Source of the DNA: Kofleriaceae bacterium
GTDB taxonomy: Bacteria > Myxococcota_A > Polyangia > Haliangiales > Haliangiaceae
Reading direction: 5' to 3'
Assembly (NCBI GenBank): GCA_039922635.1
Contig: JBDTEH010000241.1
Span: 7,672 to 71,671 of the forward strand
Length of the DNA: 64,000 nt
Each line of letters starts with the position of its first letter. The stretch's first letter is position 1. Below are positions 54,511 through 55,903 of the stretch, piece by piece. The translations under genes and the position numbers were made by a program. A model generated the notes under the pieces. That model worked only from the letters and a program-made list of their open reading frames with translations. It did not search any database and was not told the origin of the DNA.

Positions 54511-55359
54511 CTACCGGCCGGTCCGGAGCGCGCGCACGATCTCCTCGCGCACGACCTCGGCCAGCGTGGCGCCGCCGGGTGGGATCGTCGTGACGTTCGC
54601 GTGCGGCGCGGGGGCGCAGGCAACGACGGGCTTGGCGTTGCCGAGGCTGGCCGCGTGGGCACCGCCGAGCAGCTGCGCCGCGGTCTGGACGGCGCGGTCG
54701 GCGGCCCGCCCGATGCCGGCCTTCGCACGGGCGGCGAGCAACGGCTGGATCGCGGACTCTGGAAGCGGCTCGACCCCGCCGACCGCCGCTGCATAGATCG
54801 CGATCTTCGCGAGGTGCTCGACGAGCTCCATGCGCAACAGGGCGGTCTCGCAGTCCTTGCCCCACGTGATCACGCCGTGATTCGCGAGCAGCACCGCGTC
54901 GACCAGCTCGCACCACGGCGCGAGCGCCTCCTTGGCCGCGGTGCCGGGCTGCGCAAATGGCAGCTTGGGGAGCTTCGGACCGAGCGAGACCACGGCCTCG
55001 GCGATGAACGGCAGCTCGATCGGGTTGCCGCGCGAGCTCGCGATCGCGGTCGCGAACGGCGGGTGCGCATGGACGACCGCGCCGATGTCGGGGCGGCGCT
55101 CGTAGACGACCAGGTGGAGGCCGATCTCCCCGAAAACCTTCGCCCCGGCTCGGGCGCCGATCACGACCCCCCTGGCGTCGACCTCGATCAGGTCCTTGTC
55201 GTGGATCAGCCGCTTCGAGGTCGCGGTCGGGGTCGCGATCAGGCGCCCCCCCGATCCGGCGAGGTCGCGCGCGCTGACGTTGCCGTCGTGGTTCGCGGTC
55301 CAGCCGGCGGCGTGGAGATGCCGCGCGGTCTCGGCGACCGCCGTGCGCAGCAGCTTCAT
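54511..55359 (-). CDS. Class II aldolase/adducin-family protein with about 68-aa C-terminal extension ending in an encapsulation-peptide-like amphipathic helix
   Basis: ATG 55359 overlaps the upstream BMC-P stop (ATGA). Motifs: [36 protein letters not shown] (H-x-H metal site), [11 protein letters not shown]. After residue 215 or so comes an Ala/Pro-rich linker, then [19 protein letters not shown] at the extreme C-terminus. Confidence 0.88.
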
Positions 55360-55643
55360 CCTAGATCCCCAGGAGCTACGTCCACGGCGTCGACGATGCC
55401 GACGATCGCGGACCGGATCGGCACGACGTCGCCCTGCTGCAGCAACTGGCGTACCCCGGTACCCTCGGTCAACACGAGGACGCGGTCGCCTGCACCAGCC
55501 TGCGCGCGGTCGATCGCGACGAAGCTCGCGCCGACGTCCTTGCCCTCGGCATCGAGGGGTTGGACGACGAGCAGCGTCTTGCCGGCGTACGCGGGGTGTT
55601 TCACCGCGGCCCACACAGGCCCCACGACCCGGCAGTGCCTCAC
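55356..55643 (-). CDS. BMC-P (EutN/CcmL-family) microcompartment vertex protein, copy 2
   Basis: GTG 55643 overlaps the stop of copy 1 (GTGA). [66 protein letters not shown]...[14 protein letters not shown] is collinear with EutN/CcmL proteins. Length 95 aa. Confidence 0.9.
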
Positions 55644-55903
55644 GTCGCCACTCCATCGACGATCCCGACGATCGCGGCATCGACGGGGACGAACCACGGA
55701 TCGAGCGCGAGCGCGGCCTCGCGCGAGCCGACCAGGTAGACGAGATCGCCGTCGCCGGCCTGCACGGTGTCGATCGCAGCCTGGAGCTCCCCGATCGGGC
55801 GCTGGTGCTCGTCGACCGGCTGGACCAGGAGGATCTTCTGTCCCTCGAGGCCCGAGGCCTTGCGCTCGGCGACGACGGTGCCCTTCACGATGCCCAGGTA
55901 CAT
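55640..55903 (-). CDS. BMC-P (EutN/CcmL-family) microcompartment vertex protein, copy 1
   Basis: ATG 55903. [64 protein letters not shown]...[14 protein letters not shown] is the classic EutN/CcmL pattern. Length 87 aa. These are only the last 87 codons of the listed 685-aa ORF; the rest is antisense to the kinase. Confidence 0.92.

Follow-up and report, generated by a model that had tools for sequence, protein, structure and literature searches.

The stretch examined here, 64,000 nucleotides of contig JBDTEH010000241.1 from the assembly GCA_039922635.1 (positions 7,672 to 71,671; hereafter the window), has a G+C content of about 70% and comes from an uncultured member of the Kofleriaceae, the NCBI family that contains Haliangium. 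On its minus strand lie three adjacent genes (Table 1), which encode two EutN/CcmL-family pentamer proteins of bacterial microcompartments (BMCs), BMC-P1 and BMC-P2, and a class II aldolase. An earlier reading made from the sequence alone had proposed this identification of the two short open reading frames (ORFs) and had described them as chained to each other and to the aldolase by stop/start overlaps. Its coordinates and both overlaps hold when read directly from the sequence: the GTG start of BMC-P2 overlaps the TGA stop of BMC-P1 as GTGA, and the ATG start of the aldolase overlaps the TGA stop of BMC-P2 as ATGA. The motifs it quoted are likewise all present, KILLVQPVD in BMC-P1 and GNVSAR and HAHPP in the aldolase. 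The three genes are presumably coupled in translation. In NCBI the aldolase corresponds to MEO6775487.1 and MEO9186019.1 (100% identical) and BMC-P1 to MEO6775489.1 and MEO9186021.1, entries of the form 'MAG: ... [Kofleriaceae bacterium]', where MAG denotes a metagenome-assembled genome. An exact search with BMC-P1 led only to 1-kb Logan contigs from SRR26386580 and SRR26386581.

Table 1. Positions of the three genes, of the parts of the aldolase tail, of neighbouring features and of counterparts in related loci. Positions refer to the window unless a locus of a relative is named.
Feature	Position	Strand or size	Remarks
BMC-P1, EutN/CcmL-family vertex pentamer	55640..55903	-	87 aa; ATG start; PF03319
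BMC-P2, second, distinct EutN/CcmL paralogue	55356..55643	-	95 aa; GTG start; PF03319
Class II (zinc) aldolase	54511..55359	-	282 aa; ATG start; PF00596
Aldolase, conserved helix	residues 207-232		majority fraction 0.92; fixed length
Aldolase, linker 1	residues 233-243		majority fraction 0.24; 4-21 aa across homologues
Aldolase, tail motif with VVACAPAPH, conserved Cys and His	residues 244-256; 54592..54630	-	majority fraction 0.92; fixed length
Aldolase, linker 2	residues 257-265		majority fraction 0.26; 17-37 aa across homologues
Aldolase, C-terminal helix, candidate encapsulation peptide	residues 266-279; 54523..54564	-	majority fraction 0.91 (25 homologues); fixed length
Divergent intergenic region between BMC-P1 and Ser/Thr kinase	55904..55942	39 bp	TATATT hexamer at 55916-55911, minus strand
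Ser/Thr protein kinase	55943..57781	+	612 aa; hydrophobic C-terminal region; PF00069, E = 4.5e-39
Giant TPR-repeat protein	57778-63999	-	>2,072 aa, runs off window end; 2,787-2,843 aa neighbour in all relatives
Small lipoprotein-like gene	53949-54425	-	signal MRSAVALMLAATLVPGC; Pro/Ala repeat tail; 74% identical to L001 counterpart
GNAT acetyltransferase of relatives	loci L085-L090, about 10819-11382		165-171 aa; overlaps aldolase stop
484-aa protein of a relative, without Pfam match	locus L001, 10804-12258		overlaps aldolase stop
Type II loci with P1-like then P2-like genes	L054, L069, L075, L076, L077, L082		best matches: P1 55-57%, P2 38-50%
Type II locus with P1-like gene only	L070		52% identity; contig ends before next gene

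A Pfam check of the three proteins, which the sequence-only reading had suggested, returned PF03319 (EutN_CcmL) twice and PF00596 (Aldolase_II) once, all of them significant. BMC-P1 matched PF03319 with 83.2 bits (E = 1.9e-23, profile positions 1-83 of 83) and BMC-P2 matched the full-length profile with 82.5 bits (E = 3.2e-23), against a gathering cut-off of 25 bits, and the lengths of both fall within the expected BMC-P size of about 85-100 aa. Residues 7-187 of the aldolase matched PF00596 with 136.9 bits (E = 9.5e-40). Both pentamer proteins also matched the solved pentamers EutN (2Z9H/2HD3), CcmL (2QW7) and 4I7A, as well as the BMC-P protein in 5V74, the structure of the Haliangium ochraceum (HO) shell (E = 6.5e-9 for BMC-P1 and 1.4e-7 for BMC-P2). 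Pairwise identity is 41% between BMC-P1 and BMC-P2, 41% between BMC-P1 and the H. ochraceum protein Hoch_5814, and 34% between BMC-P2 and Hoch_5814; these low values suggest that the three proteins are distinct paralogues.

The rest of the window was searched for the remaining components of a shell. Searches of the whole 64 kb by tblastn with five BMC-H (hexamer) queries found none (best E = 0.59), and none emerged either when the 843 stop-to-stop segments of all six frames were scored with a BMC-H profile (best E = 2.1). As a positive control, the same profile recovered H. ochraceum BMC-H at 6.6e-42 and BMC-T1 (trimer) at 2.5e-12, and in the 80 related main loci described below it flagged one or two BMC-domain ORFs apiece, against none in the window. 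The permuted BMC-T(dp) class of those 80 loci escaped it, so the absence of BMC-T(dp) from the window rests on the Pfam scans, in which about 48 window ORFs supported by third-position G+C content (GC3), three short ORFs excepted, gave no match to PF00936, to PF00171 (aldehyde dehydrogenase, AldDh) or to PF06130 (PduL). From the null tblastn, profile and Pfam searches, the trio is therefore the sole BMC-related content of the window, which bears out the earlier claim that no BMC-H or BMC-T sequence occurs there in any frame.

An arrangement of this kind has been described. In their catalogue of BMC loci, Sutter et al. (2021, Nat Commun 12:3809, PMC8217296) defined the HO type from 41 loci in hosts given as 'Deltaproteobacteria'. 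Type I comprises 30 of these loci, including that of H. ochraceum, and its main locus holds shell proteins and AldDh only, namely BMC-H, BMC-T, one of three BMC-P proteins and the dehydrogenase. The other two BMC-P genes are found with a PF00596 aldolase gene on a satellite locus in 24 of the 30 type I genomes (PMC8217296, Supplementary Data 2), so that the BMC-P triplet is divided between main and satellite loci, both of which are reported in the same genomes. Earlier, an incomplete-core metabolosome locus had been noted in H. ochraceum, whose shell genes numbered one for BMC-H and three each for BMC-T and BMC-P (Axen et al., 2014). Since the 2021 catalogue already describes this arrangement, the window trio is an instance of a catalogued locus type: it consists of two adjacent BMC-P genes and a PF00596 aldolase gene, with neither BMC-H nor BMC-T in the window, in a Myxococcota host. 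What the sequence-only reading had said of scattered shell genes in Myxococcota, with a pair of BMC-P genes in a satellite locus and an unsettled metabolic role, agrees with the same account.

To place the pair among complete loci, GTDB representative genomes were scanned with Hoch_5814, the third BMC-P (P3), with a query 100% identical to the H. ochraceum protein. The scan gave 586 relatives, and the results that follow refer to the best 80 of the 586, mostly Myxococcota MAGs, among which H. ochraceum itself is not listed. In nearly all of these 80 loci the genes for BMC-H, P3, AldDh and BMC-T1 follow one another in that order, as they do on the H. ochraceum contig (Hoch_5815-5812). A P1-like gene, 52-57% identical to that of the window, stands directly after BMC-T1 in 7 of the 80, and in 6 of those 7 it is followed by a P2-like gene at 38-50% identity. 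Relatives of both window pentamers thus sit within complete shell operons, and this is the strongest evidence here that BMC-P1 and BMC-P2 belong to the HO shell system.

We consider it likely that the trio is a satellite operon of a type I HO BMC in this Kofleriaceae bacterium. The proposal of a Haliangium-like satellite locus, already made in the sequence-only reading, fits the published catalogue, the family of the host, the canonical main loci of its relatives and the occurrence of P1 and P2 orthologues inside type II main loci. Several results weigh against it. None of the 80 main loci, the seven of type II included, has an aldolase gene within 10 kb. The main locus of the window's own genome was not found in a search limited to accession and assembly comparisons: of the 18 Kofleriaceae MAG proteins considered as candidates for P3, none has an accession adjacent to MEO6775487 or MEO9186019, and the nearest, MEO8703858, belongs to another MAG. 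Nor do the assemblies that bear satellite loci share any member with the 80 main-locus assemblies. From the relatives and from the catalogue, the prior nevertheless strongly favours a main locus elsewhere in this genome, and by analogy we infer that it is present.

These same results could be read to mean that the genome lacks shell hexamers and that the pair of EutN/CcmL-fold proteins and the aldolase act independently of any shell, for example as a small oligomeric scaffold. The lack of BMC-H and BMC-T in 64 kb and of a same-genome main locus in the accession comparisons would both be expected in that case. We nevertheless hold it to be very improbable, given that P1 and P2 orthologues lie within complete shell operons of seven relatives, that MAGs of Kofleriaceae and Haliangiales commonly carry HO main loci (586 relatives of P3 in the scan), and that the catalogue reports main and satellite loci together in type I genomes (PMC8217296). 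The MAG is moreover fragmented, and the failure to find a main locus in accession comparisons does not amount to a negative search of the genome.

Comparison of satellite loci addressed whether the aldolase belongs with the pentamer genes. More than 2,300 aldolase homologues were recovered, the best 120 of which are all at least 71% identical and come mostly from metagenome contigs and Kofleriaceae MAGs. The order kinase-P1-P2-aldolase, with stop/start overlaps joining P1, P2 and the aldolase, was found in all four related NCBI MAG assemblies compared (whole-genome shotgun prefixes JASGLC, DASXFD, DASXZM and DATJXL) and in several metagenome contigs. On the upstream side these relatives carry a giant TPR protein, variable small genes and a divergent Ser/Thr kinase gene at a gap of 30-40 bp, followed by the trio in the order P1-P2-aldolase. 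The position behind the aldolase is taken by a GNAT acetyltransferase gene or a gene for a 484-aa protein without Pfam match, or is empty, and further on lie genes for a DUF1223 protein, a lipoprotein of 141-158 aa, a 3D-domain protein, proteins of 570 and 402 aa, a 5'-nucleotidase and pyruvate kinase.

Such conservation could be inherited synteny without functional coupling, the aldolase merely happening to adjoin the two pentamer genes in this family. The comparison does draw mostly on fairly close relatives, with aldolase identities of 73-85%, and the genes flanking the trio are syntenic too. Against this, the pentamer-pentamer-aldolase order with its overlaps holds at much lower identity: on a metagenome contig with an aldolase at 51% identity, two overlapping EutN genes immediately precede it, and on another contig, with an aldolase at 46% identity, a P2-like C-terminus at the contig start overlaps the aldolase start. 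The gene that follows the aldolase, by contrast, varies (GNAT, the 484-aa protein, or nothing), and the catalogue reports the trio in 24 type I genomes and the aldolase inside the main locus of 5 type II genomes (PMC8217296). We therefore give a purely inherited neighbourhood only a slim chance.

The aldolase itself appears to be an intact enzyme. Aligned with L-fuculose-1-phosphate aldolase (FucA), it has E78 at the position of E73, and H97, H99 and H161 at those of the zinc ligands H92, H94 and H155; in 107 diverse homologues H97 and H99 never vary and E78 hardly does. An AlphaFold2 model built on the alignment of these 107 sequences has a mean predicted local distance difference test score (pLDDT) of 90.3. 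A Foldseek search with the model gave as best matches 6BTD/6BTG, the Bacillus thuringiensis class II aldolase of 5-deoxyribose disposal (TM 0.89-0.90, 25-27% identity), and next the FucA structures (TM 0.85-0.87, about 25% identity). By alignment and predicted structure, the aldolase fold, zinc ligands and catalytic residues are intact. The specificity residues of FucA are not: in the alignment with FucA, Y113 corresponds to P117 and Y209 has no equivalent tyrosine. The label 'L-fuculose-phosphate aldolase' in JGI is unsupported because these tyrosines are not conserved, and with an identity of about 25% to solved FucA structures an assignment to FucA was rejected.

What distinguishes this aldolase further is a modular C-terminal tail. 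Encapsulation peptides (EPs) are defined as terminal alpha-helices of about 15-20 aa joined to their enzyme through a poorly conserved flexible linker. Here a conserved helix is followed by a first linker, the VVACAPAPH motif, a second linker and a C-terminal helix; across homologues the linkers vary in length and sequence, and the elements they separate keep both (Table 1). In the AlphaFold2 model, residues 231-260 have pLDDT values of 54-68, and a helix is predicted at residues 266-280, where block pLDDT reaches 91. Aldolases that share only 29-46% identity still end in a helix of the L..VV.EE(I/L)..AL type, and their linker, rich in Ala, Pro and Ser, has diverged. Judged from alignment and model, the tail thus has the EP architecture, a terminal helix behind indel-rich linkers of low pLDDT. 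The VVACAPAPH motif, kept in the closest clade only, is not a described feature of EPs.

On this basis we lean towards the aldolase being shell cargo. That it might be an encapsulated core enzyme had been put forward in the sequence-only reading, and the idea, which is already in the catalogue and not new (PMC8217296), held up in part: the terminal helix behind variable linkers speaks for it, and two further comparisons did not bear it out. The AldDh proteins of the main loci carry at their N-termini the EP consensus LDERKIEEIVARVLERLGG, followed by an Ala/Pro-rich linker, and a profile of 69 such N-terminal EPs, run against the six-frame segments of the window, gave no match on the aldolase tail; by eye the resemblance between the two is limited to a loose EEIV.R.L. 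The hydrophobic moment of the helix, 0.56-0.60, equals that of the AldDh EPs (0.55-0.57) but is reached by 9.6% of composition-matched shuffles.

A less likely alternative, which we nevertheless regard as a serious one, keeps the HO satellite and makes the aldolase a cytosolic feeder, its tail serving oligomerisation, regulation or another partner and the aldehyde or its precursor entering the shell through pores. The null result of the AldDh-EP profile and an amphipathicity that is not significant against shuffles (p about 0.1) both agree with a cytosolic enzyme. So does the presence of a second conserved tail element, VVACAPAPH, that is no feature of known EPs, and the wording of the catalogue is itself cautious: there the C-terminal extension is 'possibly an EP' and is carried by about one third of HO aldolases (PMC8217296). 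What favours encapsulation over a cytosolic role is that a helix of 14-15 residues behind indel-rich linkers of low pLDDT is the architecture by which EPs are defined, that the same hydrophobic pattern persists at 29-46% identity while the linkers diverge, and that class II aldolases with C-terminal EPs are described for the ACI type of BMC (PMC8217296).

Elsewhere in the window, the AldDh-EP profile aligned at E = 4.6, which is not significant, with DDARIKELVDR (residues about 64-74) in a secreted 601-aa protein without Pfam match, encoded at 51189-52994 on the plus strand; given the signal peptide at the N-terminus of this protein, such a match is almost certainly due to chance.

A further conjecture gives the pentamers themselves a part in loading. 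The two BMC-P proteins may be dedicated partners of the aldolase that bind the VVACAPAPH motif and the terminal helix, acting as cargo adaptors or nucleators beside, or instead of, capping vertices. We think this improbable. If it were true, expression of the operon would decide both enzyme loading and the timing of HO shell closure, and the existence of three BMC-P paralogues would be accounted for, though 12 pentamers suffice.

Taking the trio as a type I HO satellite operon with an encapsulated aldolase, we suggest the following model. From the HO 'BMC-P triplet' the satellite operon would supply two paralogues, along with a zinc-dependent aldolase, and the rest of the organelle, by analogy with relatives BMC-H, the BMC-T proteins, the third BMC-P and AldDh with its N-terminal EP, would be encoded in a main locus elsewhere. 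Because a single transcript with overlapping stop and start codons is proposed, vertex proteins and aldolase would be made together. The aldolase would then be drawn into the shell lumen by the C-terminal helix on its flexible tail and would there cleave a substrate of the ketose-1-phosphate type to dihydroxyacetone phosphate (DHAP) and a short aldehyde, which the encapsulated AldDh would oxidise to an acyl-CoA. That cleavage to DHAP and an aldehyde feeds an encapsulated AldDh is the natural inference, by analogy, from the BMC types PVM, GRM5 and ACI.

Several known systems resemble the window. From the type I HO satellite locus nothing essential separates it: in both, two BMC-P genes and a PF00596 aldolase gene lie apart from BMC-H, BMC-T and AldDh in a myxobacterial host and the aldolase has a possible C-terminal EP, and the split of the triplet between two loci, described for the catalogued type, is presumed for the window, which comes from an uncultured MAG whose main locus was not found in the accession and assembly comparisons. 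Type II HO loci share the shell parts and the order of P1 before P2, but carry the pair inside the main operon directly after BMC-T1, and none of the seven has an aldolase gene within 10 kb. PVM, GRM5 and ACI likewise tie a PF00596 class II aldolase to a metabolosome, where it is the signature enzyme and cleaves a ketose-1-phosphate to DHAP and an aldehyde ahead of AldDh, chemistry that would apply to the window by analogy; ACI further has a BMC-P triplet and, on its aldolase, the C-terminal EP for which the window offers a candidate. In these three types, unlike the window, the aldolase gene belongs to the main locus, and PVM and GRM5 have known substrates, fuculose or rhamnulose phosphate, whereas the window aldolase lacks the FucA specificity residues and has 6BTD as its nearest structure. 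A satellite locus is also known from the beta-carboxysomes of cyanobacteria, where the CcmK3/K4 shell genes obligately stand outside the main locus, possibly under regulation of their own; there the satellite consists of hexamer paralogues without an enzyme, and in the window of pentamer paralogues coupled to one. The SPU-type myxococcal and Asgard compartments were considered as kin and rejected, as they belong to a different BMC type.

The 2021 catalogue thus already covers this type of locus, the split in its architecture and the role for which the aldolase is a candidate, and the NCBI annotation of the genes is already correct. What seems to be absent from the catalogue are details: the depth to which the overlaps of the two pentamer genes and the aldolase gene are conserved, the modular tail with VVACAPAPH and a TATAnT element near P1, described below. 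We regard them as minor leads. Among microcompartments the HO shell is the principal model for structure and engineering. Its native function is described as one that 'remains enigmatic', with nucleic-acid catabolism offered as a speculation (PMC8217296). Practically, work on cargo loading or on the substrate could be guided by the coupling, which holds down to 46% aldolase identity, by the intact zinc aldolase, with its nearest solved relative in 5-deoxyribose disposal, and by the modular tail with its conserved terminal helix.

The short region upstream of BMC-P1 offers a hint as to how the operon is expressed. The hexamer TATATT lies 7 nt upstream of the BMC-P1 ATG, which has no Shine-Dalgarno sequence, and all of five independent related loci have TATAnT 7-8 nt ahead of the P1 start, in a region otherwise of about 70% G+C. 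This suggests, from sequence conservation, that TATAnT is a -10 box and that the P1 mRNA is leaderless or nearly so. A scan for consensus promoters and terminators at the trio found nothing.

The divergently transcribed Ser/Thr kinase gene next to BMC-P1 is held in that position, at a gap of 30-40 bp, in all related satellite loci. The window contains at least four Ser/Thr kinase genes, and since such kinases are so common in these genomes the adjacency means little; a regulatory role read from it was rejected. A Ser/Thr kinase gene (621 aa; 2985-4850 of locus L002) likewise comes after the H. ochraceum main locus, but it is no close homologue of the window kinase, to which it gave no tblastn match of at least 35% identity.

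On the downstream side the window differs from its close relatives: it has no GNAT gene (or gene for the 484-aa protein) and no DUF1223 gene, and the small lipoprotein-like gene is the next after the aldolase. An ORF on the opposite strand at 54052-54408 was wrongly preferred by the GC3-based gene caller; the lipoprotein gene that it overlaps has a counterpart in a relative (Table 1). Farther off, at 16265-26317 on the minus strand, lies an operon encoding a MoxR AAA ATPase, a DUF58 protein, two VWA proteins and a BatD-like protein, which resembles those of the Bat aerotolerance type and includes an 803-aa gene without Pfam match. The window also holds two genes of the 5'-nucleotidase family (39462-41009 and 48054-50039), a PhoD phosphatase gene (32964-34214) and a pyruvate kinase gene (46567-47850); one of the 5'-nucleotidase genes and the pyruvate kinase gene keep their synteny with the satellite locus in every relative.

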